A stretch of DNA of 64,000 nucleotides from Bacteroidetes bacterium RIFCSPLOWO2_12_FULL_37_12 (lineage in GTDB: Bacteria; Bacteroidota; Bacteroidia; 2-12-FULL-37-12): contig MEPC01000020.1 of assembly GCA_001769655.1 (NCBI GenBank), positions 217,922 to 281,921 on the forward strand. The letters run 5' to 3'. The notes beneath the pieces are model-generated. The model searched no databases and was not told the DNA's origin. It saw only the letters and a list, made by a program, of their open reading frames with translations. Positions 5,863-61,153 of this stretch are shown in pieces. Every line of letters starts with the position of its first letter. The stretch's first letter is position 1. The position numbers and the translations under genes were made by a program.

Positions 5863-5870
5863 TATGTTTG
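5863..5870 (+). promoter_or_regulatory. Bacteroidetes -7 promoter box TATGTTTG inside the shared 14-mer ATATATGTTTGTAT. The same 14-mer lies upstream of cysD.
   Basis: Matches the TAnnTTTG consensus of Bacteroidetes sigma-A promoters. An identical 14-mer occurs at 7887–7900 upstream of cysD. Confidence 0.45.
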
Positions 5871-7655: not shown

Positions 7656-7748
7656 GGGGTGACATGACCATCTTAGAAGTTCTGAATATTAAAAAAAATT
7701 GTTACTAATCAGCACATAGCAACTTTTGCTCTAAAAGAACAACACTAT

Positions 7749-7783
7749 ACATATAACACTAAACAAAAAATGTTTAAGTGTTA
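7749..7783. repeat. Palindromic element TAACACTAAACA-N6-TGTTTAAGTGTTA. Positions 7749–7771 form a 23-mer that is repeated exactly, in inverted orientation, at 13644–13666.
   Basis: The 23/23-nt match ACATATAACACTAAACAAAAAAT versus its reverse complement at 13644–13666 was read directly from the sequence. Confidence 0.8.
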
Positions 7784-7889
7784 ATAGATTATTTGGGCTT
7801 TTCATTTAACATTAAATATTTTTTGTTTTATGTTATTTGTTTCTTCTTGCGGCTAATGATATCTTCTGAGCAGTTACAAAAAATTCATA

Positions 7890-7897
7890 TATGTTTG
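7890..7897 (+). promoter_or_regulatory. -7 promoter box TATGTTTG upstream of cysD, about 33 nt before the ATG
   Basis: Matches the TAnnTTTG consensus and sits within the 14-mer shared with the permease upstream region. Confidence 0.45.
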
Positions 7898-7929
7898 TAT
7901 CTTAACTAAACCCACAAAACGCAATCATC

Positions 7930-8835: not shown

Positions 8836-8918
8836 GAATGAACACTCGTAAACCTGTGTCTGAGGAGTATATATAGAAAATAGAATTGCTCCTACAAATA
8901 GTAATTAACACAAAAAAC

Positions 8919-9764: not shown

Positions 9765-9787
9765 ATGAATATCGTTTTTGTTGTACT

Positions 9788-10261
9788 ATGAAACCACCCC
9801 AAAACATGAAAAAAAAATCACACCCCTACATCCCATTCCTGCTGGAAGACATAAAAGCCGCCCACCGCAGTTCTGCCGTTGCAAAATTGAACGAGCCGAA
9901 AACCATTGAAGAAGAACTGGAAGAATCGGAGCGTTTTGTTTCTGACGAACGCGAACATACGCTCAGTTATTACTGCGGATTGAAACCGGAGGACTTTCCT
10001 CCTGTAGAACAACTGTCTGATAGAGATATGCAAAAGGTATGCGAAGCGTTTAATACAATGATGGATACGTGGAATTTGTCTGTTGATTTGCCGGAGAATC
10101 TGCCGCCTTCTTTAGCATATCAACTGACGATTGGATTATTAAGTAAAGAGACCTTCATTCCCAATTGTGGGACATTGCATATTGACTTTTGCACGGGCTA
10201 TGCACCGGACTGTGAATTGAAGCAATATTGCCCCTGTCTGAAAATCTGGAACGAAAAATAA
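9788..10261 (+). CDS. Hypothetical Cys-rich protein (157 aa; motif CGTLHIDFCTGYAPDCELKQYCPC)
   Basis: The ORF is open, sits in the same operon position after the Bro-N gene, and I recognise no family for it. Confidence 0.35.
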   Translation: MKPPQNMKKKSHPYIPFLLEDIKAAHRSSAVAKLNEPKTIEEELEESERFVSDEREHTLSYYCGLKPEDFPPVEQLSDRDMQKVCEAFNTMMDTWNLSVDLPENLPPSLAYQLTIGLLSKETFIPNCGTLHIDFCTGYAPDCELKQYCPCLKIWNEK

Positions 10262-10271
10262 CCCACTCAAT

Positions 10272-12188: not shown

Positions 12189-13454
12189 TTGCACACCAAC
12201 AAATATCTCGACATGGACCTCCTCCGCTTCACCACTGCAGGAAGCGTAGATGATGGCAAAAGCACGTTAATTGGGCGGTTGCTTTTTGATAGCAAATCCA
12301 TTTTTGAAGACCAACTTGAAGCCGTTGAATCCTCCAGCAAACGAAAAGGATTAGATCACATAGATTTATCCCTGCTGACAGATGGATTAAAGGCAGAACG
12401 CGAACAGGGAATCACCATTGATGTGGCTTACCGGTATTTTGCAACACCCAAACGTAAATTTATTATCGCCGATACTCCTGGGCATATTCAATATACCCGT
12501 AACATGGTGACAGGAGCATCAACCGCTAATCTGGCTATAATTTTAATTGATGCACGGAAAGGTGTTCTTGAACAGACCTGCCGTCATTCGTATATCGCTT
12601 CCCTGTTAAAAATCCCTCATCTGGTGGTCTGCATAAACAAAATGGATCTGGTGGACTACAAAGAAGAAGTATTTGAAAAAATTGTGCACGATTTTGATAA
12701 TTTTTCTTCCAAACTGGAAGTGGTTGATATTAATTATATTCCTATCAGTGCGTTGAAAGGGGACAATGTGGTTGACAAAAGTAAAAACATGGATTGGTAT
12801 CATGGTCAAACCTTGTTGTATTTACTGGAACATATCCATATCGGAAGCGACTATAATCATATTGATTGCCGGTTTCCGGTGCAGTATGTGATACGCCCTC
12901 ATTCAGATGAACATCATGATTACCGGGGGTATGCTGGAAGAATTGCCGGCGGAGTGTTTAGAGTAGCAGACAAAGTAAAAGTTTTACCCGGTGGCTTTAC
13001 TTCAACCATCAAAACCATTGATTTTTTCAACCAGTCATTAAAAGAAGCATACCCTCCCATGTCAGTGACACTAACCCTTTCCGATGACATTGATATCAGC
13101 AGAGGAGACATTATTGTAAGGGAAAATAACGTACCGCAGTTGGGGCAGGACATTGACATGATGATGTGCTGGTTTAATCCCAAGAAAATGAATCCCGCCG
13201 GCAAATATTTTTTGAGACATAACACCAAAGAAGGAAAGTGCATGGTAAAAGAAGTGCGTTATAAAGTGGATATCAATACCATGCAACGCAACGAAACGGA
13301 TAAAGACGTTTGCATGAATGACATTGCCAGGGTGTTAATCAGAACCACTTTCCCCTTGTGTTTTGACAGTTACCGGAAAAACCGTATCACTGGCAGTGTC
13401 ATACTTATGGATGAAGGAACCAATGAGACGGTGGCGGCTGGGATGATTGTTTGA
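12189..13454 (+). CDS. cysN: Sulfate adenylyltransferase subunit 1 (CysN GTPase)
   Basis: G1 box 'GSVDDGKSTLIGRLL', 'DTPGH', 'NKMD', 421 aa. Confidence 0.9.
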   Translation: MHTNKYLDMDLLRFTTAGSVDDGKSTLIGRLLFDSKSIFEDQLEAVESSSKRKGLDHIDLSLLTDGLKAEREQGITIDVAYRYFATPKRKFIIADTPGHIQYTRNMVTGASTANLAIILIDARKGVLEQTCRHSYIASLLKIPHLVVCINKMDLVDYKEEVFEKIVHDFDNFSSKLEVVDINYIPISALKGDNVVDKSKNMDWYHGQTLLYLLEHIHIGSDYNHIDCRFPVQYVIRPHSDEHHDYRGYAGRIAGGVFRVADKVKVLPGGFTSTIKTIDFFNQSLKEAYPPMSVTLTLSDDIDISRGDIIVRENNVPQLGQDIDMMMCWFNPKKMNPAGKYFLRHNTKEGKCMVKEVRYKVDINTMQRNETDKDVCMNDIARVLIRTTFPLCFDSYRKNRITGSVILMDEGTNETVAAGMIV

Positions 13455-16260: not shown

Positions 16261-19044
16261 TTGAAAATGTCTTTCAGAATAAACCATACACTGCATATAT
16301 TTTTATTCTTTTTTATATTTATTCTTGTTCTTGTTCTCTCCCCCGCTTACGCCCAAAACTACCGGATAGAAAAATACTCAGTGGAAGCAGGCATGGCACA
16401 GGCATCGGTGGTTGACATAGAACAGGACAAAGATGGAAATATTTGGTTTGCCACTTCGGGCGGCGCTACTTATTATAATGGTAAGACATTTGAAACCGTC
16501 ACTACCGGTCATGGCTTGTTAAATAACAGGGTGCGGGAAATTTTTTGCGACAAAAAAGGAAATATCTGGATAGGTACCGGTGAGGGAATTTCAGTCATCC
16601 ATTACAATTCATTTCTTCATAGTGACACATTATCGGTTAAGAATTATACCAAGGCACAAGGGTTACCCGATAACCGGATTTCCAGCATAATACAAGACAC
16701 AAAAAACCGGATATGGATTACTACAACTGGAGGTGTGGCACGGTATCTATATAACGTGTTGGACACTTCCTGCACAAAATGTTTCAGTACGTTTACCGTA
16801 GAAAGCGGATTATTTACCAATCAAATCAATTCAATCTACGAGGATTTAAAAGGACAATTATGGCTCTGTTCACAAAAAGGATTAGCCATGTTCAATCCGG
16901 ATGATCTTTCCGGGAAAATTCTTAATCCCTTGATTTTAAATACAAGTAATGGATTGAAAGAAAACACGGTGAGAACAATAGCGCAGGGTAAAGACGGGAT
17001 TTATTGGATAGGTCTGTTGGGTTCATTAATGAGAATGAAATTAACGGATGATGATAAAAAATATTTCACATTGGAAGATGGTGTAAATTATTTTCCTGTT
17101 TTATTCGGAAATCAGATTCAACGCGCTACGGTTGACCCTAATGGAGATGTCTGGATTGGGGCACACGGTGCGCTAAGAATCTCCGAAGAGGGCAGTGATT
17201 TTATCAGCATGGATAATGGATTGGGAAAGGGTTCCGTAAGAGCAGTTTTTCATGACAGAGAAGGCAATACCTGGTTCGGAACATCTGCAGAAGGATCCAG
17301 CAAATTCAGAAGTAAAATGTTTTCGGTTTATAGCACGGATCATGGACTTATCTGCAATGATTTAAGAGCTATACTGGAAGACCACCGGGGATGGGTATGG
17401 ATGGCTGGTGCCACCGGACTGTCACTGTTAAATCCAGCGGAAAAAAATTATCAGAAACCATACAAAAAGCTTTTCCGGAATTATTCTACCCGCGAAGGAA
17501 TAAATTATACGGGCTCACTCTGGTCGTTGGCAGAAGATAAAGAAGGCAATATCTGGATAGGTGCCGGCGGTGGAATTTCTGTGGTAAATGCAAAAGAATT
17601 TGAAAAAGGAAAAGTGGTATTTGACAATTTTTTGGAAGCAGATGGCTTAAAGAATCCCGCCACCATGGCTTTATATCAGGATAAGAAAGGTAGAATCTGG
17701 GCGGGAACTTTAGGAGGGATTGCGTTATTTCAGGGAAAACTCTTTGAATCGAAAACAGTTCGGACGTCTCAACATAAAAAACATCCCTCATTCAATTTTT
17801 ATGGTCCTGAAAAAGGCATTCCTTTTTCACAGATACTTGATATTAAGGAAGACGCACGCGGAAATTTATGGATTGGTTCCGGCGGTGGATTACTCCGGCT
17901 CAAAGAGTTGACGGATGACACCATTGAAGTGGAAATTATTGGAACGCAACAAGGGTTAAAGAATATTCACATTTTATCAATTACGGAAGATAAAGTTGGA
18001 AATCTTTGGCTGGGAACTGCCGGAGGAGTTACTAAATTAAAAGTGATTCGCAACGAACCACTCGAAGTGAGTGTCACTAACTATACTGTAAAGGACGGAC
18101 TGAGTTCAGATACTCCGTACTTGCTGTTGATTGACAGCAAAGGGGATTTGTGGGTGGGAACCAACCGCGGAGTTGACCGTTTTTACATACGACAGGGAGA
18201 ATTTAAAAAAATCAAATCTTACGACAAAGACCAAGGATTTTCGGGTATTGAATGTAATCACAATGCCGGCTGGATGGACCGGAACGGGAACCTGTGGTTT
18301 GGGACGATGGGGGGCGCCATTTATTATAATGGAAGGGAAGATAAACCGAACCTGACGGAGCCGCTTGTAAAAATTTCAGAGTTAAAATTATTTTATGATA
18401 AAATAAATCCAGTTAATTTTGAAAAAAAAGAAACTGCTTATAGTGATTCCTCCTCTTCCCTTTTATTCAATTACAATCAAAATCACCTGACATTTGAATA
18501 TATCGGCGTAAGTTTAAGCCATCCGGATAAGGTAACCTATCAATATATGTTAAGAGGATTTGATAATGGCTGGAGTCCGGTGACACGCGAAAACGATGCT
18601 ACTTATTCAAATATACCACCCGGCAACTATGTTTTTATGGTAAAGGCGTGCAACGAGGAAGGAATCTGGAACCGTAAACCGGTTGAAATATCGTTTACCA
18701 TAAAAAAGCAATATTGGGAAACGGGATGGTTTTACACATTACAGGTTTTATTTTTTGCCGTTCTTATCGGAACTACATTTTATTTAAACCGCTCCAACAC
18801 CCAAACGCGTATTGCCACGACGCTGATTTTTGTCACGTTGTTTGTCAGTTTTGAATATGTAGAGGAAACGGTGGAGCCCTATCTGATGAATTTCACCGGC
18901 GGCGCTCCGCTTTTTAAAGTCATAACCAATTTGATTCTCGCATCCATTCTTGTTCCGGTGGAGCATCGTATCCGTAAATTTCTTGCGGGATTAAGTAAGG
19001 GGAAAGAGGAGGGGGAGATTGAGAATACGGTAGTTAGTGACTAA
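16261..19044 (+). CDS. Periplasmic Reg_prop (two-component regulator propeller) + Y_Y_Y domain protein. It ends in the conserved 3-TM module instead of histidine-kinase, receiver or AraC domains.
   Basis: Signal peptide. Many 'DxxGNIWIGT' propeller repeats. Y_Y_Y region 'TYQYMLRGFDNGWSP…ATYSNIPPGNYVFMVKA'. C-terminus 'WETGWFY…FEYVEETVEPYLMNFTGGAPLFKV…VPVEH'. Confidence 0.8.
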   Translation: MKMSFRINHTLHIFLFFFIFILVLVLSPAYAQNYRIEKYSVEAGMAQASVVDIEQDKDGNIWFATSGGATYYNGKTFETVTTGHGLLNNRVREIFCDKKGNIWIGTGEGISVIHYNSFLHSDTLSVKNYTKAQGLPDNRISSIIQDTKNRIWITTTGGVARYLYNVLDTSCTKCFSTFTVESGLFTNQINSIYEDLKGQLWLCSQKGLAMFNPDDLSGKILNPLILNTSNGLKENTVRTIAQGKDGIYWIGLLGSLMRMKLTDDDKKYFTLEDGVNYFPVLFGNQIQRATVDPNGDVWIGAHGALRISEEGSDFISMDNGLGKGSVRAVFHDREGNTWFGTSAEGSSKFRSKMFSVYSTDHGLICNDLRAILEDHRGWVWMAGATGLSLLNPAEKNYQKPYKKLFRNYSTREGINYTGSLWSLAEDKEGNIWIGAGGGISVVNAKEFEKGKVVFDNFLEADGLKNPATMALYQDKKGRIWAGTLGGIALFQGKLFESKTVRTSQHKKHPSFNFYGPEKGIPFSQILDIKEDARGNLWIGSGGGLLRLKELTDDTIEVEIIGTQQGLKNIHILSITEDKVGNLWLGTAGGVTKLKVIRNEPLEVSVTNYTVKDGLSSDTPYLLLIDSKGDLWVGTNRGVDRFYIRQGEFKKIKSYDKDQGFSGIECNHNAGWMDRNGNLWFGTMGGAIYYNGREDKPNLTEPLVKISELKLFYDKINPVNFEKKETAYSDSSSSLLFNYNQNHLTFEYIGVSLSHPDKVTYQYMLRGFDNGWSPVTRENDATYSNIPPGNYVFMVKACNEEGIWNRKPVEISFTIKKQYWETGWFYTLQVLFFAVLIGTTFYLNRSNTQTRIATTLIFVTLFVSFEYVEETVEPYLMNFTGGAPLFKVITNLILASILVPVEHRIRKFLAGLSKGKEEGEIENTVVSD

Positions 19045-19481: not shown

Positions 19482-21851
19482 ATGAAAACTATAAATTTTC
19501 ACTTTTGTACCTTTTTACTGATGTTAATGAGCAACTCCTCTTTTTCTCAATGGACATCTTATAATACTTCAAACTCGGGATTAATGGATAATTACTGCTG
19601 GTACATAGCTGCTGACCCTAAGGGTGATATTTGGGTCAGCACACAATATTCAGGTGCGAACAAATTAACAGATTCAACTTGGATCAACTATACCACTTCT
19701 AACTCCAGTATTGGAGGAAATTTTGTTTGTCCTGTAAATTTTGATAAAAAAGGGAATACATGGATTGGATCAAATGGTGGAGGGCTTTCAAAATTTGATG
19801 GTTCAAATTGGACTGTATATAACACTTCTAATTCCGGTTTACCGAGTAATATTGTTTATAGAATTGAATTTGATGCAAGTGGAAATGTTTGGGTAGGGAC
19901 AAAATTGGGCGGCTTGGCAAAATTTAATGATACCGTTTGGACAGTATATAATACAAGTAATTCGGGTATGGTATCAAATGATGTTAATGCTTTAACTTTT
20001 GACAAAAATGGAAATATTTGGGTGGGTACCCGTTTTGGAGGCCTCACTAAATTTGATGGCAATAGTTCATGGACAAATTATAATACCCTTAATTCACCTA
20101 TTCCAAATGATTCTGTATATTTTCTGAAATATATTTACCAAACAGATATATTATGGGTTGGAACTGTAGGAGGATTAGCTACTTTATCAGATAGTACATG
20201 GGCTATATATACTACTACAAATTCAGGACTACCTCATAATTACATAAGGTCAATTGCTTATTCATATAACGGTGAAGCGTGGATTGCTACAGGTGGTGGT
20301 GGAGTGGCACGATTAGTAGATACAACTTGGACCGTCTATAATACGTCAAATTCAAATCTACCAAGCAATATGGTATGGTCTGTTGCTACCGATATACGGG
20401 AAAAAGTTTGGGTAGCTACCTGGGGCGGCGGCATTGCAAGTATAAATCCATTTGGCGATAGCATTACTGTAATTATTACAAGCGCTGTTGACAATCCGGG
20501 TGATACGATTGAACTCCCAGATGTAGGTGTGGTTATTAACTTTGACTCATCCAGCACAGTGCTTTCCGGAGATGATGGGGTTACAGTTACGCAGTATCTG
20601 GATGGACTGGACAGTACCCAACAACAAACTTCAAGTACAGATTCAGTGGCTACTATCTTCAACAATAGCTACTGGAACATTTTTTCATATTTAGATACGT
20701 TTAATGTTACTGTCTGTTTTAGCTTTGATTCCTCACAATTCAACACTGGTTTTCTTCAATACCTGAGCATGGTCTTTCAGGAAATTCAGGGGGATCCCTG
20801 GCAACTCATAACATCTGTTCCTACAGTTACTGATAGCACAATTTGCTTCACTACAAATCATTGGAGCAACTGGGCATTAGCCATTACAAAATCAGATTCC
20901 AAAATGCAGATTGACACAGTATTTTATAACCAAAATGTTACACCCATTATTTATACAAAAGAATTTTCACAATCCGGAATAACCTTCAAAACAAAATTAA
21001 ATGCAGGAGAAACGGATACTATTTTTGTTGCCCGTTATGATATTAATCCGGGTGGAAATGCACCTGCTGAAATTCAAAGCTATCTAAATACATTCTGGGA
21101 AATTAGAAATCAGAAAAAAGATACAACCGCATTATTTATTGATGCCACTGATATAGAAGGATTTCTTCCTGAACAAAAACAAAATTACGTAGTTTTGAAT
21201 CGTGCCGGAGTTTTTGATGATTGGAAAATCCTTCCTACACTCAGAGTAAAGAGAAATTCAAAAGAAGTTTTGTTTGTACAAAAAGATACCTTGTTTGGTC
21301 AATTTCTTATTGGTGTATCCAGCAAAGTTCAACCTTATTTTACAGATAGCATTGTATTTACTCCTGCTTGTGCCGGTGATAGTATTCTATTCTCATCAGT
21401 TATTGATGGTGGCACTCCTCCTTATACTTATTCCTGGACAGGAGACGTGGGATTAAGTGGCACAACTGAAACCTTAGGTTTTGTATATCCCAACATGGGG
21501 CAATACTCAGTTACATTAAAGGTAGAAGATACCTTTGGTGCTGAAACAGAATATATTTCAACGGTGAATATAGGTTGTACCAACCGAATGGTAGATAATG
21601 TTCCCGGAAAAAATCCTGTATTTTTTCCAAATCCAACTGAAAACGGAATCATGTATTTATCTTTTTCTGGACACGGTTCACATAATATAATAATATCTGT
21701 TTGTGACCTTTTTGGAAGGAAAGTTTATAGTCACACAACAAACCTGTTAGAAAATATCAGGATGAATTTGAGCCACCTAAATTCAGGAAGTTATATAGTT
21801 CATGTAAAAACAAAGGATAAAGAGTACAGAGAGATGGTTAGAGTGAAATGA
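19482..21851 (+). CDS. T9SS-secreted protein with N-terminal Reg_prop-like propeller repeats (NTSNSGL…GNxWxGT), a PKD-like region and a type A Por secretion C-terminal domain
   Basis: Signal peptide. At least 6 'YNTSNSG' repeats. C-terminus 'VFFPNPTENGIMYLSF…GSYIVHVKT…' is typical of the T9SS CTD (TIGR04183-like). Confidence 0.75.
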   Translation: MKTINFHFCTFLLMLMSNSSFSQWTSYNTSNSGLMDNYCWYIAADPKGDIWVSTQYSGANKLTDSTWINYTTSNSSIGGNFVCPVNFDKKGNTWIGSNGGGLSKFDGSNWTVYNTSNSGLPSNIVYRIEFDASGNVWVGTKLGGLAKFNDTVWTVYNTSNSGMVSNDVNALTFDKNGNIWVGTRFGGLTKFDGNSSWTNYNTLNSPIPNDSVYFLKYIYQTDILWVGTVGGLATLSDSTWAIYTTTNSGLPHNYIRSIAYSYNGEAWIATGGGGVARLVDTTWTVYNTSNSNLPSNMVWSVATDIREKVWVATWGGGIASINPFGDSITVIITSAVDNPGDTIELPDVGVVINFDSSSTVLSGDDGVTVTQYLDGLDSTQQQTSSTDSVATIFNNSYWNIFSYLDTFNVTVCFSFDSSQFNTGFLQYLSMVFQEIQGDPWQLITSVPTVTDSTICFTTNHWSNWALAITKSDSKMQIDTVFYNQNVTPIIYTKEFSQSGITFKTKLNAGETDTIFVARYDINPGGNAPAEIQSYLNTFWEIRNQKKDTTALFIDATDIEGFLPEQKQNYVVLNRAGVFDDWKILPTLRVKRNSKEVLFVQKDTLFGQFLIGVSSKVQPYFTDSIVFTPACAGDSILFSSVIDGGTPPYTYSWTGDVGLSGTTETLGFVYPNMGQYSVTLKVEDTFGAETEYISTVNIGCTNRMVDNVPGKNPVFFPNPTENGIMYLSFSGHGSHNIIISVCDLFGRKVYSHTTNLLENIRMNLSHLNSGSYIVHVKTKDKEYREMVRVK

Positions 21852-28849: not shown

Positions 28850-28925
28850 ATTAATGGGAATATTATTTTCTTTTTAAATATATAATGTCCAAATTTAGTA
28901 ATTTTGCGGGAAACAAAAATCTATC

Positions 28926-31037: not shown

Positions 31038-31051
31038 TTTCCCCCTCCCTT

Positions 31052-33778: not shown

Positions 33779-33887
33779 GATTTGAAGGGTATTTGACTTA
33801 ATTTTGTGTATGGGGTTTTAGCTACTCAGTTTGAAATAAAATTCAAATATAACTGAAACTACTCTTTTATGATAATTTTCATTACGA

Positions 33888-50869: not shown

Positions 50870-51604
50870 CTACAAATACCCATTTGCCAGCACATCTGCA
50901 ATGTGCAGTACCTTAAGATTCAAATTGTTTTTCTGGATGTACCCATTCAAGTGCATCAGGCAGGAAAGATCTGAGGATATTAAATATTCCGCTTGTGTAT
51001 CGAGGGCATGTTGAATTTTTTGTTCCCCCATTGCCACTGAGATTGGCTCAAACTTGACAGCAAACGTACCCCCAAATCCGCAACAGGTTTCGGTATCTTT
51101 CATTTCGATGAGCGTTAAACCTTTTACATGAGCAAGGAGTTTTCGGGGCGCTGATTTAATTCCACACTCCCGCAAAGCACTACAGGAATCGTGATACGTG
51201 GCCGTGCCATTAAATGTAGCGCCGACATCAGTGACACCAAGCACATCGGTTAGAAATTCTGTAAACTCAAATAGATTTCTCTGGATTTGCTTGCAGGGGT
51301 TATAAAGCGAAGAATGTTGGAATAATTCATTGTAATAATTCCGAACCATTCCGGTACAAGATGCGCTCGGACAAACAATGTAGTTATCATTTGGAAAATC
51401 ACGGATAAATTTGGATGCCACTTCAAAAGCATCGTTCCAATGACCTGCATTAAAAGCAGTTTGACCGCAACAGGTTTGAGCAGGGTTGTAGTTTACTTTA
51501 CAACCCAATTTCTCCAGTACTTTCACCATATTGAATCCTGTTTCAGGATATATCTGGTCAATAAAGCAGGGGATGAAGAGGTCAACTTTGGTTTTGTCTG
51601 GCAT
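50870..51604 (-). CDS. (Fe-S)-binding CCG-domain protein (LutA / glycolate oxidase Fe-S subunit-like)
   Basis: Cysteine-rich 'FIPCFIDQ…CCGQ' and 'CPSASC…CCGFGG' CCG motifs, 244 aa. Confidence 0.65.
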   Translation of the reverse strand: MPDKTKVDLFIPCFIDQIYPETGFNMVKVLEKLGCKVNYNPAQTCCGQTAFNAGHWNDAFEVASKFIRDFPNDNYIVCPSASCTGMVRNYYNELFQHSSLYNPCKQIQRNLFEFTEFLTDVLGVTDVGATFNGTATYHDSCSALRECGIKSAPRKLLAHVKGLTLIEMKDTETCCGFGGTFAVKFEPISVAMGEQKIQHALDTQAEYLISSDLSCLMHLNGYIQKNNLNLKVLHIADVLANGYL

Positions 51605-51653
51605 TTATTAGAAATAAATTTAAAAAGAAAAAGTTTTGTAACTATTCAGCATG

Positions 51654-51800
51654 AAAAAAGTTCTCACGCAAAGTCGCGAAGAACGCAAAGAAAAAAGTCA
51701 GTAATGATTTTTTTTCTCTGCGTACTTAATACTTTGCGTACTTTGCGACTTTGCGTGACATAATAATTGCGAAAAAGAATACTCGCCTGAGTTTTTATAA
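51654..51800. repeat. About 150-bp structured intergenic repeat (MITE-like), copy 2 (see 4317–4467)
   Basis: About 85% identical to copy 1 and in the same orientation. Confidence 0.8.
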
Positions 51801-51804
51801 AGTT

Positions 51805-53127
51805 TTAACCCGTTACAACACCGTTTTTTTTGATTCGCAGCAAAACCAACATACACATCAGAAAGAACGCACTCAACATTAATGCTGAATACCGGATGTT
51901 TCCGGTTAAATCCGAAACAAATCCAAATGCAAAAGTACCGAAAACAATTGCCACTTTTTCACTGACATCATAAAAACTATAAAATGAAGCATACTCAGTG
52001 GGTCTTCCAGCAATCAGAGTTGCGTAAGTAGAACGGAAGAGTGATTGCATTCCTCCCATCATCATCCCAGCCATAAAAGCCATGATGTAAAAACCCGTTT
52101 CGGTCTTTAAAAAATATGCCCATACACTTATTCCAATCCAAACAAGAACACAAAAGCGCAAACCGGAGATGTTTCCTATTTTCCCCGATAAGAAAGCCAT
52201 TACATGCGCTCCAAAAATACCTAATAGCTGAGTCAGCAATATGGTAAGAATAAGTTTGAATGACGATAGTTGCAAAATCTGGGAACCATAAATGGTCGCC
52301 ATGTACAAAGCCGTTTGCAATCCCATGCTGGCAAAAAAATATCCGAGCAAATATTTTTTTAATAACGGATGAGCACTTGTATATTTCCATGCGAGTGATA
52401 ATTTTTTTAAACCGGATAAAGCCGATTGCTGACAATCTGTATTCAAACAGTGCTTTTCGTTTAGATTTAAAAAAGTGAATTGTGCAAACCCGAACCACCA
52501 TAATCCGGTAACGACAAATGAATACCGGATAAGTATGGTTCCCTCCATAAATTGTGCAGTTTCATTCCATTTTATGAAAACAAGAATCAGTACTAACAAA
52601 ACCGAACTTCCCAGGTATCCCAAAGAGAAACCCCTCGCTGAGATTTTATCAACATTATCTGTTCCGGCTATTTCGGGAAGAAAAGCGTTATAAAAAACAA
52701 TACTGGCTGTAAATCCCACCATTCCTAGTATAAAAAATAATACTCCCCATTCAAAAAATTCTTCTGTAAAAAAATAAAGCAATCCACAACTCATGCATCC
52801 CACATAGCAAAAGAATTTCATGAATTTTTTTCTGAGATTACCGGCATCGGCTATGCCCGATAAAAAAGGGATGATGAGCGCCACAATTAAAAAAGCTGCG
52901 GACAGCGAATAAGAATAAAGTGCAGAACTAGCCATTTTTATTCCCCAAAAATCAACAACGCATTGCAGTTGTCCTCCTGGCAGATTATTGCATAAGCCGG
53001 TTTTTTGTGATAGATGTTCGTAATAGACGGGAAAAATAGCGGACGTAATTACGAGTGAAAAAACGGAATTTGCCCAGTCGTACATGCACCAGGCGGTTTG
53101 GGTTTTGTGTTGTGGGTGGGGAGGCAA
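51805..53127 (-). CDS. MFS transporter (UMF1-like). The likely start MYDWANS is 14 codons in.
   Basis: 12 TM helices and a 'YDWANS' N-terminal motif. Confidence 0.6.
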   Translation of the reverse strand: MPPHPQHKTQTAWCMYDWANSVFSLVITSAIFPVYYEHLSQKTGLCNNLPGGQLQCVVDFWGIKMASSALYSYSLSAAFLIVALIIPFLSGIADAGNLRKKFMKFFCYVGCMSCGLLYFFTEEFFEWGVLFFILGMVGFTASIVFYNAFLPEIAGTDNVDKISARGFSLGYLGSSVLLVLILVFIKWNETAQFMEGTILIRYSFVVTGLWWFGFAQFTFLNLNEKHCLNTDCQQSALSGLKKLSLAWKYTSAHPLLKKYLLGYFFASMGLQTALYMATIYGSQILQLSSFKLILTILLTQLLGIFGAHVMAFLSGKIGNISGLRFCVLVWIGISVWAYFLKTETGFYIMAFMAGMMMGGMQSLFRSTYATLIAGRPTEYASFYSFYDVSEKVAIVFGTFAFGFVSDLTGNIRYSALMLSAFFLMCMLVLLRIKKNGVVTG

Positions 53128-53133
53128 TGGGAG

Positions 53134-53727
53134 CTAAATTTTTGGAAGAAGCCCTTTCATGATTTTCTTAACCGAATCATTCAAATTCATCTTATCAGTT
53201 CTGATTTCAACATCAGGATTCACAGGAGCTTCAAATGGGGAATCAATACCTGTAAAATTTTTAATCATTCCTATCCTCGCTTTTTTATAAAGACCTTTTA
53301 CATCCCGATGCTCGCAAACATTCAAGGGGCAATTTACATAAATTTCAAAAAATTCATTCCTTCCGACTAATTTTCTTATGGCTTGCCTCTCTTTTTTAAA
53401 TGGGGAGATAAACGCAGTTAGCACAATGATTCCTGCCTCTACAAACAATCTGGCTGTTTCACCGATTCTCCTTATATTTTCCGCCCTGTCTTCTTCACTA
53501 AAACCAAGGTCTTTACATAAGCCCTTACGGATATTGTCACCGTCAAGTAAATAAGTACGAAATCCCATTTTATGTAATCTTTCCTCAACTTTATTGGCAA
53601 GAGTGGATTTGCCGGATCCTGATAGTCCGGTAAACCAAATTATCAAGGAATTATGGTTATTTAAATGTTGGCGGTCTTTTTTGGAGATAGTGTGAGAATG
53701 GGGGATTATGAATTTAGGTGATGACAT
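53134..53727 (-). CDS. cysC: Adenylyl-sulfate (APS) kinase
   Basis: P-loop 'GLSGSGKSTLA' and 'YLLDGDNIR'. Confidence 0.9.
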   Translation of the reverse strand: MSSPKFIIPHSHTISKKDRQHLNNHNSLIIWFTGLSGSGKSTLANKVEERLHKMGFRTYLLDGDNIRKGLCKDLGFSEEDRAENIRRIGETARLFVEAGIIVLTAFISPFKKERQAIRKLVGRNEFFEIYVNCPLNVCEHRDVKGLYKKARIGMIKNFTGIDSPFEAPVNPDVEIRTDKMNLNDSVKKIMKGLLPKI

Positions 53728-53831: not shown

Positions 53832-54320
53832 TCAGGTTTTTCGGATAAACTTTGCTGGATTTCCTGCCACAACTGTGAAAGGAGGAACATCTTTTGTAAC
53901 TACGCTACCGGCACCTACAAATGCATTTTCCCCAATAGTTAACCCACAAAGAATAGTGACACTGGAACCAACAGTCGCTCCTTTTTCTATATGTGTTTCA
54001 ATTACTTTCCAATCTGATTCGGTTGCCAATTCCCCACTTTCGTTTACCGCTCTTGGAAATTTATCATTAATAAAAGTAACATTATGTCCTATAAAAACAT
54101 TATCGTGTATATGAACTCCTTCGCAAATAAAAGTATGAGAAGATATTTTACAGTTTTTCCCGATAAATGCACCTTTTTGAATTTCTACAAATGCACCGAT
54201 TTTTGAATTATCATCTATGGAACAACCATACGCATTTACAAAATTGAATACTTTAACGTTTTTACCAAGCTTAACATTAATGAGGGATTGTTTTTCGTTG
54301 TTGATAGTAATCAGTTCCAT
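53832..54320 (-). CDS. Hexapeptide-repeat N-acetyltransferase (WbpD/PglD-like, acting on a UDP-amino-sugar)
   Basis: Left-handed beta-helix repeats '…GATVGSSVTILCGLTIGENAFVGAGSVVTKD…GNPA'. Confidence 0.7.
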   Translation of the reverse strand: MELITINNEKQSLINVKLGKNVKVFNFVNAYGCSIDDNSKIGAFVEIQKGAFIGKNCKISSHTFICEGVHIHDNVFIGHNVTFINDKFPRAVNESGELATESDWKVIETHIEKGATVGSSVTILCGLTIGENAFVGAGSVVTKDVPPFTVVAGNPAKFIRKT

Positions 54321-54328
54321 TTTTCTTA

Positions 54329-55333
54329 CTATAAAATTGTTTCCTTTCCTTTGTTCTTTATAGAGTACTGAGCCGCTTCCAGAATTTTGACCACTTCTAA
54401 CCCGGAGTTATAATCCGCCAACGGTTGTGTTCCGTTCAGGATGGCACTGATAAAATCTTCAGCCATTCCTCCCAATGCTTCTTTCATATCAATTTTAGGG
54501 GTATAAATATCTCCGGTTCTATAATCAACCAATATCTTTCTTTTTTCTTCATCGGTTTTTAATGAATATCCGGAGTCATATATTTTTACTTTCTCTGTGG
54601 GCTCCACATCGTTGTAAACCACCATTTTCTTATCACCCCCAATGAGCAGGTAACGGATCTTGACAGGCGAACTCCATGAACAATTAAAATGAGCAATGAT
54701 CCCAGATTGATAATTGACCGTCATGTATGCAATATTTTCAATGGAGCTATGTGTGTGGGATACCCCTACTGCCTGGATGCTGAATGGTGTTTCTTTTACC
54801 AAATGTGTAAGTATTGAAATATCATGGGGAGCCAGGTCCCAAAGAACATTTATATCGGGCTGAAATAGTCCAAGATTTATTCTGGTAGAGTCAAAATAAT
54901 TAATTTTTCCGATGGTACCTTTATCTACAATTTCTTTGATTTTTTTTACTGCGCCGTTGTATAAAAATGTATGGTCAACCATAAGCACTTTTTTTCTAAT
55001 CATAGAAATCTCAATCAACTCCTTGGCGCTGGCACTGGTATGAGTCATGGGTTTTTCTATAAGCACATGTTTATCGTTTTGTAAGGCATTTTTAGCAAGT
55101 TCGAAATGACTATAAACGGGGGTAACAATTACAACAGCATCAATTTCTGAATTATTGATAACTTCATCAGCAGATCTGGTAACCTGAAGAGCCGGGTAAA
55201 GCCGTTGAGCAGATTTTAAAACATCTTCTCTTAAATCAGCTAAGTGGGTAACCTGGCAGTTTTTTGTATTGTTAAAATTTCTAACAATATTTGGTCCCCA
55301 GTAACCGAAACCGATAATGGCTATTTTTAACAT
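54329..55333 (-). CDS. Gfo/Idh/MocA-family oxidoreductase (WbpB-like UDP-sugar 3-dehydrogenase)
   Basis: 'MLKIAIIGFGYWGPN' Rossmann N-terminus, 334 aa. Confidence 0.75.
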   Translation of the reverse strand: MLKIAIIGFGYWGPNIVRNFNNTKNCQVTHLADLREDVLKSAQRLYPALQVTRSADEVINNSEIDAVVIVTPVYSHFELAKNALQNDKHVLIEKPMTHTSASAKELIEISMIRKKVLMVDHTFLYNGAVKKIKEIVDKGTIGKINYFDSTRINLGLFQPDINVLWDLAPHDISILTHLVKETPFSIQAVGVSHTHSSIENIAYMTVNYQSGIIAHFNCSWSSPVKIRYLLIGGDKKMVVYNDVEPTEKVKIYDSGYSLKTDEEKRKILVDYRTGDIYTPKIDMKEALGGMAEDFISAILNGTQPLADYNSGLEVVKILEAAQYSIKNKGKETIL

Positions 55334-55383
55334 TTATTGTTTTGAGGCAAATATCCGATATCTTTAAACAATATCCAATCACT

Positions 55384-56511
55384 TCACAATACTTGTGTTT
55401 GTTGTGAAAAACCTTTTGCCCTTTCTGTTTGAATTTCCAATAATTTAGACACTATCCTTGTAGAGGTTTTCCCATCCCAAAGTTCAGGAATTTTTCCTTT
55501 TTTCCAAGTACCAGATAAAATTTTATCTACTAAATTTTTTAATTGACTTATGTCTTGAAGCAGTTCATTGGTTCCTACTTTAATGGTTTCAGGTCTTTCA
55601 GTATTCTTTCGCAAAGTAATACAAGGTATTCCCAAAACGGTTGTTTCTTCCTGAATTCCACCGGAATCGGTTATAACGGCTTTTGAGTTTTTTACTAAAT
55701 ACATAAATTCCAGATAACCCAATGGATCAATAGTAATAATATTTTGAAAATTTATTTTTATTTTTTTTAAATTATTTACGGTTCGCGGGTGAGCAGGAAA
55801 AACTACAGGCAAATTGCCGGCAGATATATTTATATGGTTCAAAATATTTTCCAACGAGGCGAGGTCATCCACATTGCTCGGCCTATGCAGGGTAAGAATG
55901 AAATAATTCTTATCTGATAAATTATAGGTATCCCAAAGTAAGGGTTTTTTAAGTTTATTCAGATTTGCTTGCAGTGTATCAATCATGGTGTTGCCGACAA
56001 AATGTATTCTTGATTGTTCTATTCCTGCTTTCAATAAATTGTCGTTGGCAAAACTGGAAGTAGTGAAAAAGTGATCCGCAAGTGCATCCGTTACCATTCG
56101 GTTGATTTCTTCTGGCATGGTAAGATCAAATGAACGGATACCGGCTTCAACATGAGCTAATTGAGTATTAAGTTTTTTAGCAATCACGCTACAAGCTAAA
56201 GTAGAATTTACATCACCCACTACTACAACGACATCTACAGGATTATTTATAAGTTCTTCTTCAAATCGGATCATGATGTTGGCTGTTTGAACTGCTTGCG
56301 AGCCGGAACCGACCCCCAGGTTAATGTCAGGAGGAGGAATTTCCAATTCGTGAAAAAAAGTATCGCTAAGCGCTTTATCGTAGTGCTGGCCTGTATGCAC
56401 TAAGCGGTATTGAATAGGGATGCCCATGGATTGTTGTTTACGAATTGCTCTGATGATAGGGGCAATTTTCATAAAGTTAGGGCGTGCTCCGGCAATGATT
56501 GTAACTTTCAT
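55384..56511 (-). CDS. wecB: UDP-N-acetylglucosamine 2-epimerase (non-hydrolysing)
   Basis: 'MKVTIIAGARPNFMKIAPII', 375 aa. Confidence 0.85.
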   Translation of the reverse strand: MKVTIIAGARPNFMKIAPIIRAIRKQQSMGIPIQYRLVHTGQHYDKALSDTFFHELEIPPPDINLGVGSGSQAVQTANIMIRFEEELINNPVDVVVVVGDVNSTLACSVIAKKLNTQLAHVEAGIRSFDLTMPEEINRMVTDALADHFFTTSSFANDNLLKAGIEQSRIHFVGNTMIDTLQANLNKLKKPLLWDTYNLSDKNYFILTLHRPSNVDDLASLENILNHINISAGNLPVVFPAHPRTVNNLKKIKINFQNIITIDPLGYLEFMYLVKNSKAVITDSGGIQEETTVLGIPCITLRKNTERPETIKVGTNELLQDISQLKNLVDKILSGTWKKGKIPELWDGKTSTRIVSKLLEIQTERAKGFSQQTQVL

Positions 56512-56571
56512 TTAGACCCTTGTTTTTTTTATAAGTTAGCAAAGTTAAATAAAAAAAACGATAGGTTTATA

Positions 56572-59466: not shown

Positions 59467-59982
59467 TTATTTTCTTTTTTTAATTAATTTTGCCGGTACA
59501 CCGCCAACTACACTATATTCTTCCACATCTTTAGTTACAACTGCACCAGCACCAATGATACTGCCCCTTCCTATTTTTATACCGGGCATAATAATTACAT
59601 TTCTTCCTATCCATACATTGTCTTCAATTATTGGGTTTACATTTTTTATTTCACCTTGCTGAATCATGGGCACATTGATTTGAGCAAAATCATGACTTGA
59701 ATTCAGCAGAGTAACATTAGGCGCTATCATTACATAACTTCCGATTTCTGCTCCTTGAATAAACACATTTTCGTTGATATGAGTATGTGAACCGATTTTT
59801 ATGCCATTAGCTGAAGCGATGTAAACCGAATTTTCAAAATAATTATTCGTATGGGGTTCCATTATCTTTAAGATATTTTCCACATACCAACAGCGTACTC
59901 TATTGAAGAAAAATCCAAAGCGCGAGTGAGGAAGTTTTGCTATTATTAAATAGTAAACAAGAAGTTTAATTTTTTTCAGCAT
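59467..59982 (-). CDS. Hexapeptide-repeat acetyltransferase (WcaF / serine-acetyltransferase-like)
   Basis: LbH repeats '…NVWIGRNVIIMPGIKIGRGSIIGAGAVVTKD'. Confidence 0.7.
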   Translation of the reverse strand: MLKKIKLLVYYLIIAKLPHSRFGFFFNRVRCWYVENILKIMEPHTNNYFENSVYIASANGIKIGSHTHINENVFIQGAEIGSYVMIAPNVTLLNSSHDFAQINVPMIQQGEIKNVNPIIEDNVWIGRNVIIMPGIKIGRGSIIGAGAVVTKDVEEYSVVGGVPAKLIKKRK

Positions 59983-61153
59983 GTAGTTTCATGGTTAATA
60001 CATACAAATAAGGCAGGACTGCCCAACGAAGTGTGTTTTTATTTCTTTTAATTCCAAAAATATCAATGATTGAATAAATATCGTTATTTATAATAAAATA
60101 ATTTTGGATAGTTGAAGATAATGAGTGTACCAATGGGTGGTCTTTGAGTAACAGCGCAACATTTAATAATTCAGCATTGTCGTATAAATCGTATTTTACC
60201 ATAGATGGCTTATCTGAAATTGAAAACCTTCTTGCAAGTTTAGTTTTGTTATCATAAAAATTGTTTTTTACATAGTTATATCCTTTTTGAATTATAGTAT
60301 CTGCTTGGTTTAAAGGGAAAAGTAACTGTGCTTTAAAAATATTTTTTAAAATAAAACAAGAGTGAAAACAGTCAATAAAATTTCCAGAAAGGGTGTCCGC
60401 ATAATAATACCAACTGCCATCCGTTTGTTGGAAATTTACAATAAAGTTGTAAAGCCGAAGAATTTTTTCTTTAATATATGCCTGTTTATCAGGAAAATAA
60501 GGAAGAAGCAATGCGTAACAATACATTGCGTAAGAATTAGCATTTATTACAATCCTGTTTTCTTTCACCGGAGCATACGAAAGTGCGAGTTGGTCAGCAT
60601 CTGATTTCAAAACTAAAATGTCTTTTTCAATGAAATCAAAAACACTTTTTATAACAGGATCAAACCCTTTGTTACCTGTTTTTTCTCTGTATTTTATAAG
60701 CGCTTCAAGCACATAAGGGGTGTTGGTTATATAGGGTGTCTGTGGCGGATATACTCCATTTTTAGAAACCCAAAGAGTGTTCATTCCCCAGCAGTATCCG
60801 TTATAACCTTTTGAAAAATTTTCAACTAACCAGCGAATATGCTTCTCGGCAACATGCAGGTAATTGACCGTTTGTCCGTTATCAAAGAGTTCCAATAATG
60901 CCAAGGCAGAAAGTGCCCGCACCATTGGATATTCTTGTTTTTGATAACCAAAGCGGTATGAATTATTCAGAAATAAATCAAACAGGGTTAAGGTTGCCGC
61001 CGGAAGTATTCCGGTTATTTTATTTTTATAAAATAAATATTTAATCTTTTTGCCAATGGATGTTTTCCAAATATCATAAGGGTCATAACAACTTAAATTT
61101 TCTTGAAGGCAAAACTTTTCAATAAAAGGGATTGTTTTTATTTCGGCGAACAT
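59966..61153 (-). CDS. Hypothetical protein in the EPS operon. It may be an (alpha/alpha)-toroid polysaccharide-modifying enzyme (heparinase II/III-like or glucuronyl C5-epimerase-like) or a polymerase.
   Basis: 395 aa, soluble, no motif I can assign with confidence. The guess rests on context only. Confidence 0.25.
   Translation of the reverse strand: MFAEIKTIPFIEKFCLQENLSCYDPYDIWKTSIGKKIKYLFYKNKITGILPAATLTLFDLFLNNSYRFGYQKQEYPMVRALSALALLELFDNGQTVNYLHVAEKHIRWLVENFSKGYNGYCWGMNTLWVSKNGVYPPQTPYITNTPYVLEALIKYREKTGNKGFDPVIKSVFDFIEKDILVLKSDADQLALSYAPVKENRIVINANSYAMYCYALLLPYFPDKQAYIKEKILRLYNFIVNFQQTDGSWYYYADTLSGNFIDCFHSCFILKNIFKAQLLFPLNQADTIIQKGYNYVKNNFYDNKTKLARRFSISDKPSMVKYDLYDNAELLNVALLLKDHPLVHSLSSTIQNYFIINNDIYSIIDIFGIKRNKNTLRWAVLPYLYVLTMKLHAEKN

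Follow-up and report, generated by a model that had tools for sequence, protein, structure and literature searches.

Within the 64-kb stretch of Bacteroidota DNA analyzed here (the window), a gene for a stand-alone adenylyl-sulfate (APS) kinase, cysC, is followed directly by a gene for an MFS transporter. Both lie on the minus strand with polysaccharide genes on either side (locus 2), and the sulfate adenylyltransferase genes cysD and cysN are 44.3 kb and 39.7 kb away from cysC, respectively. This arrangement raises the question of which pathway cysC serves, and whether the polysaccharide genes or the transporter beside it have any part in that pathway.

The APS kinase gene and its polysaccharide surroundings

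The cysC open reading frame (53134..53727, minus strand) is intact and encodes a product of 197 aa. In profile searches, this product matched PF01583 with an E value of 1.6e-69 (233 bits; cut-off, 21.1) and scored above the curated cut-offs of NF003013 (296 bits; cut-off, 163) and TIGR00455 (282 bits; cut-off, 138.7). Upon alignment with a solved APS kinase, Arabidopsis APK1 (3uie; E value, 3.6e-56), the P-loop GLSGSGKST and the LDGDN(I/V)R, DRAENIRR, and ISP motifs were found to be identical in the two proteins. Judged by these scores and motifs, 53134..53727 is a genuine APS kinase gene, encoding the PAPS-making step. The APS kinase identity given in the preliminary description was thereby borne out, and its coordinates for the cysC and MFS reading frames matched exactly. 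A tblastn search revealed no further cysC-like sequence in the 64-kb window, and an Rfam scan near cysC revealed no riboswitch or other RNA. The gene order around cysC recurred in independent assemblies from several samples, which indicated that the layout is not an assembly artefact.

On the minus strand, locus 2 runs from a GT4 gene through a truncated epimerase-like open reading frame, a further GT4 gene, and genes for a 395-aa product, a hexapeptide acetyltransferase, an AsnB-like protein, and a DUF354 protein to the genes for WecB, a WbpB-like oxidoreductase, a WbpD-like acetyltransferase, CysC, and the MFS transporter. Past the MFS gene follow those for a LutA-like CCG protein, a sugar dehydrogenase (Ugd), a GT4 protein, a WbaP-like protein, Wza, and Wzz, down to position 43034. 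The operon order described earlier was broadly right, but it had three acetyltransferases and ended at the MFS gene, where the genes in fact continue; just two acetyltransferases of locus 2 lie within the window, and the third (3668..4249) belongs to the neighboring polysaccharide locus (locus 1).

The block just upstream of cysC (53832..56511) comprises sugar-nucleotide genes with gaps of 50 nt (WecB-WbpB), 8 nt (WbpB-WbpD), and 104 nt (WbpD-cysC). WecB (55384..56511, minus strand) matched TIGR00236 wecB at 311.9 bits (cut-off, 210). The WbpB-like GFO/MocA oxidoreductase (54329..55333, minus strand) gave family-level matches only, scoring 139.8 bits versus an equivalog cut-off of 450, and the WbpD-like hexapeptide acetyltransferase (53832..54320, minus strand) gave generic hexapeptide matches alone. 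In Pseudomonas aeruginosa O5, the wbp pathway makes UDP-ManNAc3NAcA by means of WbpA, WbpB, WbpE, WbpD, and WbpI, plus the WbpG amidotransferase. Like that system, locus 2 has a 2-epimerase, a GFO-type oxidoreductase, a hexapeptide N-acetyltransferase, a sugar dehydrogenase, and an AsnB-like amidotransferase. Unlike in that system, no WbpE-type aminotransferase was found nearby, and no DegT-type enzyme was found in the window or in the 8 kb upstream. The WbpB and WbpD names given at first were thus not upheld, as the matches fall below the equivalog cut-offs and the aminotransferase of the pathway was not found nearby. Although WecB passes its cut-off, the full UDP-ManNAc3NAcA gene set was not found in the searched stretch of locus 2.

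A scan for sigma-70 promoters, which is unsuited to Bacteroidota, gave fewer matches than were obtained in shuffled sequences, and the Bacteroidota -7 motif TAnnTTTG, itself just ~3-fold enriched upstream of genes here, was used instead. One match, TAACTTTG (56540..56547, minus strand), lies 36 nt upstream of the WecB start and is a weak candidate promoter for a WecB-WbpB-WbpD-cysC-MFS unit; TATGTTTG sits 40 nt upstream of cysD, and TAAATTTG sits 55 nt upstream of cysN. No TAnnTTTG match was found within 200 nt upstream of cysC, nor was a terminator-like hairpin found in the 104 nt preceding it, so it is plausible that cysC may be read through from WecB-WbpB-WbpD. Because 6 nt separate the cysC stop codon from the MFS start codon, these two genes are probably cotranscribed. 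The 200-nt gap past the MFS stop codon holds a 139-nt palindromic repeat (51654..51792, minus strand), a long hairpin and then a U run, which by its form would be a terminator-like or REP-like element; the 211-nt stretch that includes the gap (51605..51815) gave a predicted fold of -54.9 kcal/mol (z score, -4.9). A second copy of the repeat, 88% identical (4319..4457, minus strand), lies in locus 1 between the Wzx stop codon and the acetyltransferase start codon.

The other PAPS genes and their layout in relatives

The remaining sulfate activation genes of the window lie on the plus strand. An SLC13/DASS-type anion permease with TrkA-C domains (5868..7655; PF03600, PF02080, and PF00939) is presumed from its family to be the sulfate importer of the PAPS module. 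It is followed by cysD, encoding sulfate adenylyltransferase subunit 2 (7930..8835; 454 bits to NF003587 and 425.6 bits to TIGR02039 [cut-off, 396.6]), and by cysN, encoding subunit 1, the GTPase (12189..13454; 560 bits to TIGR02034). The cysN product has no fused APS kinase domain, covering positions 21 to 430 only of the 632-position bifunctional CysNC model, and a separate cysC is therefore needed for PAPS. Three inserted genes (8886..11957) separate cysD from cysN; they encode a Bro-N protein (plus strand; PF02498), a 157-aa product (plus strand), and a TPR membrane protein (minus strand), and a match to phrog_15286 (E value, 1.5e-124) falls within them. The interval is 3.35 kb, compared with cysN within ~80 nt of cysD in two related loci (L091 and L175). 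Thus, the distance of about 40 kb between cysC and "cysDN" given in the preliminary description was sound, but cysD and cysN are split and do not form the unit that this name implied. No Inositol_P match, as expected of a cysQ-type PAP phosphatase, was obtained among the 49 open reading frames of at least 120 aa that were scanned, of 52 in all; cysQ may lie elsewhere in the genome.

In the five nearest cysC relatives whose context was examined, cysC always lies directly upstream of cysD (of sat in one case), and in four of them it follows an SLC13 permease. The order is SLC13-cysC-cysD-cysN in L175 (72%, 87%, and 93% identity to the cysC, cysD, and cysN products of the window), SLC13-cysC-cysD in L176 (73%, 68%, and 86% for SLC13, cysC, and cysD), and cysC-cysD-cysN in L091 (70%, 86%, and 80%). 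The module also retains cysQ in the other two: in Catalinimonas (L092), SLC13-cysC-cysD-cysN-cysQ is found inside a polysaccharide locus, and in L093, cysQ-SLC13-cysC-sat is found between Wza/Wzi/Wzz and Wzx-GT2-sulfotransferase-Wzy. Moreover, cysC was directly upstream of cysD in 10 of 14 Bacteroidota species genomes, nine of which had cysN there too, and the cysC gene of the window grouped with such module-type cysC genes in a neighbor-joining tree. Since its nearest relatives keep cysC beside cysD, the PAPS module appears to have been broken up in this genome: permease, cysD, cysN, and cysC are all present in the window, but not as one contiguous unit.

From relatives that are 68 to 72% identical in cysC, we infer that cysC was relocated. 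The ancestor would have possessed a contiguous SLC13 permease-cysC-cysD-cysN module, from which cysC would have moved by ~44 kb in this lineage, to a site between the WecB/WbpB-like/WbpD-like block and a preexisting housekeeping pair consisting of the UMF1 MFS gene and the LutA-like gene; cysD and cysN would have been split separately, by the 3.35-kb insertion. Alternatively, cysC may have been acquired independently rather than relocated. One specific source, Thermodesulfobacteriota or Dadabacteria, was suggested by a scan of species genomes, in which the best cysC matches were 60 to 65% identical while cysD and cysN matched Bacteroidota. This foreign origin was dropped when a larger protein search returned cysC genes of 68 to 72% identity; these lie in SLC13-cysC-cysD(-cysN) modules, and the cysD and cysN genes beside them are likewise the nearest to those of the window. 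A decayed cysC copy between the SLC13 gene and cysD (7656..7929) was also sought, with six cysC proteins as tblastn queries (E values up to 10), and no match was obtained there.

The MFS transporter and its recurrent neighbor

The gene downstream of cysC (51805..53127, minus strand; 440 aa) encodes an Atg22/UMF1-family MFS transporter. Its product matched PF11700 (ATG22) with an E value of 2.5e-71 (241 bits; cut-off, 24.1) and MFS_1 with an E value of 1.8e-09, and an AlphaFold (AF2) model showed a 12-helix MFS fold (pLDDT, 84; pTM, 0.86), for which Foldseek gave a probability of 1.0 to many MFS structures. The Foldseek matches offered no clue to the substrate, the best PDB matches being 11 to 17% identical and spanning transporters of sugars, drugs, anions, and metals. 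The nearest homologs are only ~49% identical. A TTG start codon was preferred over the ATG chosen by other gene callers because that ATG lies past the first residues of the N-terminal motif conserved among the homologs (consensus, K...AW.MYDWANS). In yeast, Atg22 exports amino acids from the vacuole; although the strong family match and the fold agree with membership in the family, the context of the MFS gene in the window, between cysC and the downstream LutA-like gene, offers no parallel to what Atg22 does in yeast. A literature search on bacterial UMF1/Atg22 function and on a link between MFS and LutA yielded nothing usable, and no bacterial member of the family whose substrate is known was found there or among the solved structures.

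The LutA-like gene (50870..51604, minus strand) encodes a protein with two CCG domains (PF02754; E value, 3.9e-33). Among 63 metagenome loci of UMF1 relatives, 11 had such a gene immediately after the UMF1 gene, at identities of 30 to 65% (50 to 65% in 10 of the 11), and it is the recurrent, evolutionarily tied partner of the MFS gene. Conversely, none of the 83 loci of MFS relatives (80 from metagenomes and 3 from genomes) contained cysC, cysD, cysN, any other sulfur gene, or SLC13, sulfotransferase, glycosyltransferase, or polysaccharide assembly genes, and no UMF1 MFS gene was found in any of the 84 loci of cysC relatives (79 from species genomes and 5 looked-up contigs). The MFS protein is a secondary transporter for which the loci of its relatives lend no support to a role in sulfation or polysaccharide export, and it is probably unrelated to the neighboring cysC. 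The part in polysaccharide or PAPS function that the gene had been given earlier was not sustained.

The sulfotransferase and the destination of PAPS

The only recognizable sulfotransferase in the searched sequence is encoded in locus 1, by a 297-aa gene that is also called in the source contig (260..1153, minus strand). The product is a PAPS-dependent carbohydrate-type enzyme (PF00685; E value, 3.7e-17) whose nearest solved relatives are 3rnl and the heparan sulfate 3-O-sulfotransferases, and the PAPS-binding motifs KSGTT and REPVSRAYS are present. Locus 1 also encodes Wzx, an acetyltransferase, a hydrolase-like protein, a Wzy-like protein, a GT4 protein, and a Wza-like protein, and it is divergent from SLC13-cysD; the sulfotransferase gene is 4.7 kb from the SLC13 gene and 52 kb from cysC. 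Most likely, then, cysC feeds the sulfotransferase of locus 1. According to this scheme, the SLC13 permease would take up sulfate, as its family suggests; CysD and CysN, by family membership, would convert the sulfate to APS; CysC, by family membership and its intact motifs, would convert APS to PAPS; and the sulfotransferase would use PAPS in the cytoplasm to add sulfate to a sugar in the lipid-linked repeat unit before flipping by Wzx. The entire account, in which cysC provides the APS kinase step of a scattered PAPS supply pathway for the locus 1 sulfotransferase, was relocated, and is probably unrelated in function to the MFS gene, is the one that we favor and consider reasonably probable.

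The preliminary description had instead predicted that the polymer of locus 2 is the sulfated one. Such a prediction would require a sulfotransferase that was not recognized, and expression of cysC would be tied to that polymer. Indeed, cysC lies on the same strand as, and at short gaps between, the sugar-nucleotide genes and the Ugd/GT4/WbaP/Wza/Wzz block, neither a promoter motif nor a terminator separates it from the genes upstream, and two soluble locus 2 proteins, one of 395 aa (59966..61153) and one of 515 aa encoded upstream of the window, have no family match; either of these could be an unrecognized sulfotransferase. However, no Pfam sulfotransferase family was matched by the products of ~29 kb of locus 2 (its part in the window plus 8 kb beyond the window's end), and searches of the proteins without a family against Pfam at E values up to 1 gave nothing relevant. 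A motif for binding the 3'-phosphate was found in the locus 1 enzyme alone, by a crude regular expression; this was so strict that just 2 of 82 loci with cysC were caught and the PF03567 enzyme of L093 escaped it, and its result is given little weight. With a bona fide sulfotransferase adjoining the other PAPS genes in locus 1, 52 kb away, sulfation of the locus 2 polymer appears unlikely. What stands of the earlier proposal is the tie between PAPS and polysaccharides as such, for which the sulfotransferase in a Wzx/Wzy locus beside SLC13-cysD and the PAPS genes in polysaccharide loci of relatives both speak, but not for locus 2.

We also considered ordinary assimilatory sulfate reduction, in which APS would be converted to PAPS and then, by PAPS reductase, to sulfite, and the polysaccharide setting would be incidental. 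The cysDNC genes are the classical assimilatory set; in Escherichia coli they are contiguous, coregulated with cysH and cysIJ, and serve cysteine synthesis. The same three enzyme families occur here, and cysC, cysD, and cysN each lie in a different context, a sign that the region is rearranged. Unlike the situation in E. coli, no cysH, cysI, cysJ, or cysK was found in the window and its ~15-kb flanks (~80 kb), although cysH and cysIJ could lie elsewhere in the genome, beyond the stretch that this search covered. Moreover, SLC13-cysD is divergent from the sulfotransferase-bearing locus, the module of the nearest relatives sits in polysaccharide loci with cysQ or sulfotransferases (L092 and L093), and the homologous cluster of Bacteroides was given the role of supplying PAPS to a sulfotransferase (PMC9417993). 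A purely assimilatory role thus seems somewhat less probable even than sulfation of the locus 2 polymer. Beyond the searched stretch, however, the genome may encode a second CysC, a PAPS reductase, or further sulfotransferases, so that assimilation or acceptors of another kind could be served by cysC in addition to, or in place of, the locus 1 enzyme. By far the least credible proposal is that cysC and the UMF1 gene form a functional pair, with sulfate, a sulfonucleotide (PAPS or PAP), or a sulfated product moved across the inner membrane. The 6-nt spacing with probable cotranscription would fit such a pair, and no bacterial UMF1 member of known substrate was found in the literature search or among solved structures that would speak against it, but the pairing was seen in this organism only, the MFS gene has another conserved neighbor, and a dedicated SLC13 permease is already present beside cysD. 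If this pairing were real, transport of PAPS, PAP, or sulfated small molecules by UMF1 would imply sulfation outside the cytoplasm and would provide the first bacterial UMF1 substrate.

Supply of PAPS to the locus 1 sulfotransferase has counterparts in several known systems. Rhizobial nodPQ are cysDN/cysC paralogs dedicated to Nod factor and lipopolysaccharide sulfation, with NodQ being a fused CysN-CysC; these genes are contiguous and symbiosis regulated. They resemble the set described here in that sulfate activation is dedicated to glycan sulfation and not to assimilation. In Bacteroides thetaiotaomicron, a member of the same phylum, the PAPS synthesis genes of BT_0411-BT_0416 adjoin the sulfotransferase gene BT_0416 (PMC9417993), and, as proposed for the window, a transporter with stand-alone cysC, cysD, and cysN supplies a PF00685-type sulfotransferase rather than cysteine synthesis. 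The Bacteroides genes are contiguous, however, and cholesterol or other steroids serve as the acceptor, whereas in the window 44 kb lie between cysC and cysD, cysN is separated from cysD, and a Wzx/Wzy polysaccharide locus holds the sulfotransferase gene. In Cobetia marina KMM 1449, the gene cluster for a sulfated capsule includes cysN/cysC, cysD, cysQ, and a sulfate permease gene (PMC11766843); PAPS synthesis and sulfate uptake are thus encoded amid polysaccharide biosynthesis genes, with sulfotransferase genes in the cluster as well. The environmental loci L092 and L093 are similar. Cobetia differs in its fused CysNC, in its ABC transporter (group III) pathway for the capsule, and in a module that includes cysQ; in the window, cysC stands apart from the other PAPS genes, no cysQ was found, and each of the two loci is of the Wzx/Wzy type.

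The presence of PAPS genes in polysaccharide or sulfotransferase loci is thus already documented in Bacteroides and Cobetia, and nothing here would surprise a specialist; it is the layout that is unusually scattered. For annotation, these results indicate that the position of the sulfotransferase, and not the chance position of cysC, should decide to which locus a sulfated product is assigned, and that genes surrounded by a polysaccharide cluster, as the MFS and LutA-like genes are here, need not be part of it. More speculatively, a kinase step placed in a second polysaccharide locus could couple the sulfation of one polymer to the expression of another. With this organism, there is a further environmental Bacteroidota genome whose sulfate activation is apparently dedicated to glycan sulfation and not to cysteine synthesis, and a sulfated surface polysaccharide is predicted for this uncultured aquifer organism.

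cysC and its place in locus 2

The open reading frame (ORF) at 53134..53727 on the minus strand encodes an APS kinase (cysC); in profile searches it matched PF01583 (E value, 1.6e-69), NF003013 (296 bits; cut-off, 163) and TIGR00455 (282 bits; cut-off, 138.7), solved APS kinases aligned with it (3uie; E value, 3.6e-56), and the P-loop, substrate, and Mg motifs were conserved. The adjacent ORF at 51805..53127 on the same strand encodes an Atg22/UMF1-family major facilitator (MFS) transporter (PF11700; E value, 2.5e-71), whose predicted model was a confident 12-helix MFS fold (pLDDT of 84). A preliminary description had reported these two genes amid polysaccharide genes, and this observation was confirmed, as both coordinates were exact, the family matches agreed, and at least seven independent assemblies shared the gene order of the window.

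The polysaccharide locus that holds cysC (locus 2, minus strand, toward the window end) begins with a GT4 gene cut by the window end, an epimerase-like ORF, a GT4 gene, a 395-amino-acid soluble protein without a family assignment (59966-61153; sub-threshold GH88 match; E value, 6.5e-4), and a hexapeptide acetyltransferase. The epimerase-like ORF (62275-62961; 228 amino acids) aligned with PF01370 only over the C-terminal portion of the profile (positions 139 to 239) and is probably truncated or degenerate, since the Rossmann N terminus is missing. There follow an AsnB-like amidotransferase, DUF354, WecB, a WbpB-like GFO/MocA oxidoreductase, a WbpD-like acetyltransferase, cysC, and the MFS gene, and then, after a 200-nt gap, a LutA-like protein with two CCG domains, a nucleotide-sugar dehydrogenase, a GT4, a WbaP-like priming transferase, Wza, and Wzz. 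No DegT/WbpE-type aminotransferase was found in the window or in the 8 kb upstream (L089, the sequence beyond the window end, 1-10000), despite the WbpB-like and WbpD-like genes at 53832-56511; within the sequence covered, the predicted 2,3-diacetamido-uronic acid pathway is not complete.

Most intergenic gaps in locus 2 did not exceed 82 nt; the three larger ones precede cysC (104 nt) and follow the MFS gene (200 nt) and the LutA-like gene (97 nt). A consensus scan placed the Bacteroidota -7 motif TAnnTTTG 27 to 111 nt upstream of approximately 10 of 47 genes (approximately 3 expected), including cysD (-40), cysN (-55), and WecB (-36), and found none in the 200 nt preceding cysC, the MFS gene, or the LutA-like gene. 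In silico, no terminator-like hairpin lay between the WbpD-like gene and cysC, and the gap 3' of the MFS gene was predicted to fold as a long hairpin with a U run after it (-54.9 kcal/mol; z = -4.9). Based on these gaps, the motif upstream of WecB, and the positions at which hairpins are present or lacking, a WecB-WbpB-WbpD-cysC-MFS transcription unit is a reasonable prediction. The hairpin belongs to a 139-nt palindromic repeat present in two copies (4319-4457 and 51654-51792; 88% identical), each just past a stop codon, one that of Wzx in locus 1 (before the next gene) and the other that of the MFS gene, and each forming a long hairpin (approximately -55 to -60 kcal/mol; z of approximately -4.9) followed by a U run. 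Among the loci compared for it, the 18-nt core occurred only in those of this same organism. A REP/MITE-like element and a shared terminator are both conceivable; because the other copy sits inside locus 1 after Wzx, the repeat is perhaps a REP-like insertion and not a full terminator.

A dispersed sulfate activation module

The remaining sulfate activation genes lie near locus 1, the polysaccharide locus at the window start. An SLC13/DASS permease (5868..7655) and cysD (7930..8835) diverge from locus 1 at a distance of 50 nt, and cysN (12189..13454) follows after three unrelated genes. These form a 3.35-kb insertion (8886-11957) comprising a Bro-N protein (phrog_15286; E value, 1.5e-124), a 157-amino-acid unknown, and an opposite-strand TPR membrane protein; in L091 and L175, both close relatives, cysN starts no more than approximately 80 nt past cysD. 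cysN has a TAAATTTG motif of its own, 55 nt upstream. Profile comparison showed that cysN lacks a fused kinase domain, and PAPS formation therefore depends on a separate cysC.

Among 79 species-representative genomes with cysC relatives, 14 loci were from Bacteroidota, and in 10 of these cysC was directly upstream of cysD (with cysN also present in 9 of the 10); the SLC13 permease was directly upstream of cysC in 3 of the 14 and on the opposite strand in a fourth. In a large protein collection, the five closest cysC genes with context looked up (67 to 72% identical) were all directly upstream of a sulfate-adenylylating gene (cysD, or sat in L093), and SLC13 preceded cysC in four. The neighboring module genes in these loci are likewise those most closely related to their counterparts in the window, as in L175 (SLC13-cysC-cysD-cysN; cysC 72%, cysD 87%, and cysN 93% identical), L176 (SLC13-cysC-cysD; 73%, 68%, and 86%, respectively), and L091 (cysC-cysD-cysN; 70%, 86%, and 80%, respectively), and in a neighbor-joining tree the window's cysC grouped with these module-type genes and that of Catalinimonas. 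An initial idea that cysC had been acquired from Thermodesulfobacteriota was an artefact of a smaller genome collection, as the larger protein collection gave closer, module-type relatives. No cysC remnant was found between SLC13 and cysD. The simplest reading of these comparisons is that SLC13, cysC, cysD, and cysN once formed one contiguous module that came apart in this lineage, and that cysC would have landed just upstream of the MFS/LutA-like pair.

Other features of the window were also recorded. The inserted TPR protein (10272-11957, minus strand) has a paralogue at 38700-40388 (plus strand), both with C-terminal membrane helices (34% identity over the full length; E value, 1e-95). A divergent pair, a Reg_prop/Y_Y_Y protein (minus strand) and a T9SS-secreted PKD/CHU_C protein (plus strand), occurs in two consecutive copies at 26171-35729, where DNA repeats (75 to 81% identical; spacing, 4,692 to 4,890 nt) suggest a segmental duplication; there is a further Reg_prop/Y_Y_Y gene, the third, at 16261..19044. 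The Rfam DUF805 RNA motif RF03081 was detected at 19402-19470 on the plus strand (69.9 bits; gathering score, 51.1); the gene that lies 12 nt downstream of it (19482..21851) encodes a Reg_prop/PKD/T9SS-tail protein and is not a DUF805 gene.

The MFS transporter and its LutA-like neighbor

The motif shared by MFS homologues (consensus K...AW.MYDWANS) starts upstream of the ATG chosen by other gene callers, and therefore a TTG start 6 nt past the cysC stop is likely. The nearest homologues were only approximately 49% identical, and relatives in Pontibacter, Flexibacter, and an Ignavibacteria metagenome-assembled genome had unrelated neighbors (three genome contexts). The preliminary description had placed the transporter with cysC in the polysaccharide operon, and a functional tie of the transporter to PAPS or polysaccharides was not borne out: no UMF1 MFS gene was beside cysC in any of the 79 species-representative loci, and none of 80 metagenome loci with MFS relatives contained cysC, cysD, cysN, SLC13, or homologues of the window's sulfotransferase, glycosyltransferases, Wzx, or Wza. 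A LutA-like CCG homologue (30 to 65% identical; 50 to 65% in 10 of 11) was instead found downstream on the same strand, 23 to 114 nt away, in 11 of 63 loci with enough downstream sequence (L095, L098, L107, L108, L117, L121, L122, L125, L131, L134, and L165), amid housekeeping genes that varied between loci. From this pairing and the 0 of 80 result, the two genes form a conserved pair that lies by chance between two polysaccharide blocks, separated in the window by the palindromic repeat. The transporter is thus probably unrelated to PAPS or polysaccharide function, and that it handles a sulfonucleotide or sulfated compound, for which there is no comparative support, is highly improbable. Neither lutB nor lutC was beside the stand-alone LutA-like gene in the window or in two loci inspected. 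The pair (50870-53127) hints at an uncharacterised unit of a transporter and an Fe-S protein.

Use of PAPS

Locus 1 (minus strand) consists of Wzx, an acetyltransferase, a secreted hydrolase-like protein, an 11-helix Wzy-like protein, and a PF00685 sulfotransferase (260..1153) and continues beyond the window start (L094, 13565-21230) with a GT4, a 1,372-amino-acid Wza-like/DUF3604 exporter, and a T9SS-secreted DUF3604 protein. Locus 2 continues past the window end (L089, 1-8113) with a CMP-sugar synthetase-like gene, an acetyltransferase, a formyltransferase, and NeuB, which are nonulosonic-acid genes, and then a Wzx flippase, a methyltransferase, a 515-amino-acid unknown, and a 12-helix Wzy-like protein. 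Because each continues beyond the window and locus 2 has its own Wzx and Wzy-like genes, these are two separate Wzx/Wzy-type loci. The only sulfotransferase found was that of locus 1, adjoining SLC13-cysD; it has both PAPS-binding motifs, and its closest solved relatives are the bacterial sulfotransferase 3rnl and heparan sulfate 3-O- and N-sulfotransferases. The proposed tie between PAPS and polysaccharide modification therefore stood in part: the link is present, but the sulfotransferase belongs to neighboring locus 1, and no locus 2 product matched sulfotransferase families.

No cysH, cysI, or cysJ was present in approximately 80 kb of inspected sequence. Moreover, in two close relatives the module lies within polysaccharide loci: in Catalinimonas the module, accompanied by cysQ, stands between glycosyltransferases and MBOAT/AlgX genes, and in L093 it stands between Wza-Wzi-Wzz and Wzx-GT2-sulfotransferase-Wzy. 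There is also published precedent, as the Bacteroides BT_0411-0416 cluster supplies PAPS to a sulfotransferase (PMC9417993) and the capsule locus of Cobetia marina carries cysNC, cysD, and cysQ with a sulfate permease (PMC11766843). Together with the sulfotransferase beside SLC13-cysD, these observations make it a well-supported inference that PAPS serves glycan sulfation. The sulfated product is expected to be that of locus 1 and not of cysC-bearing locus 2, and the arrangement in the window is a scattered version of an already documented module.
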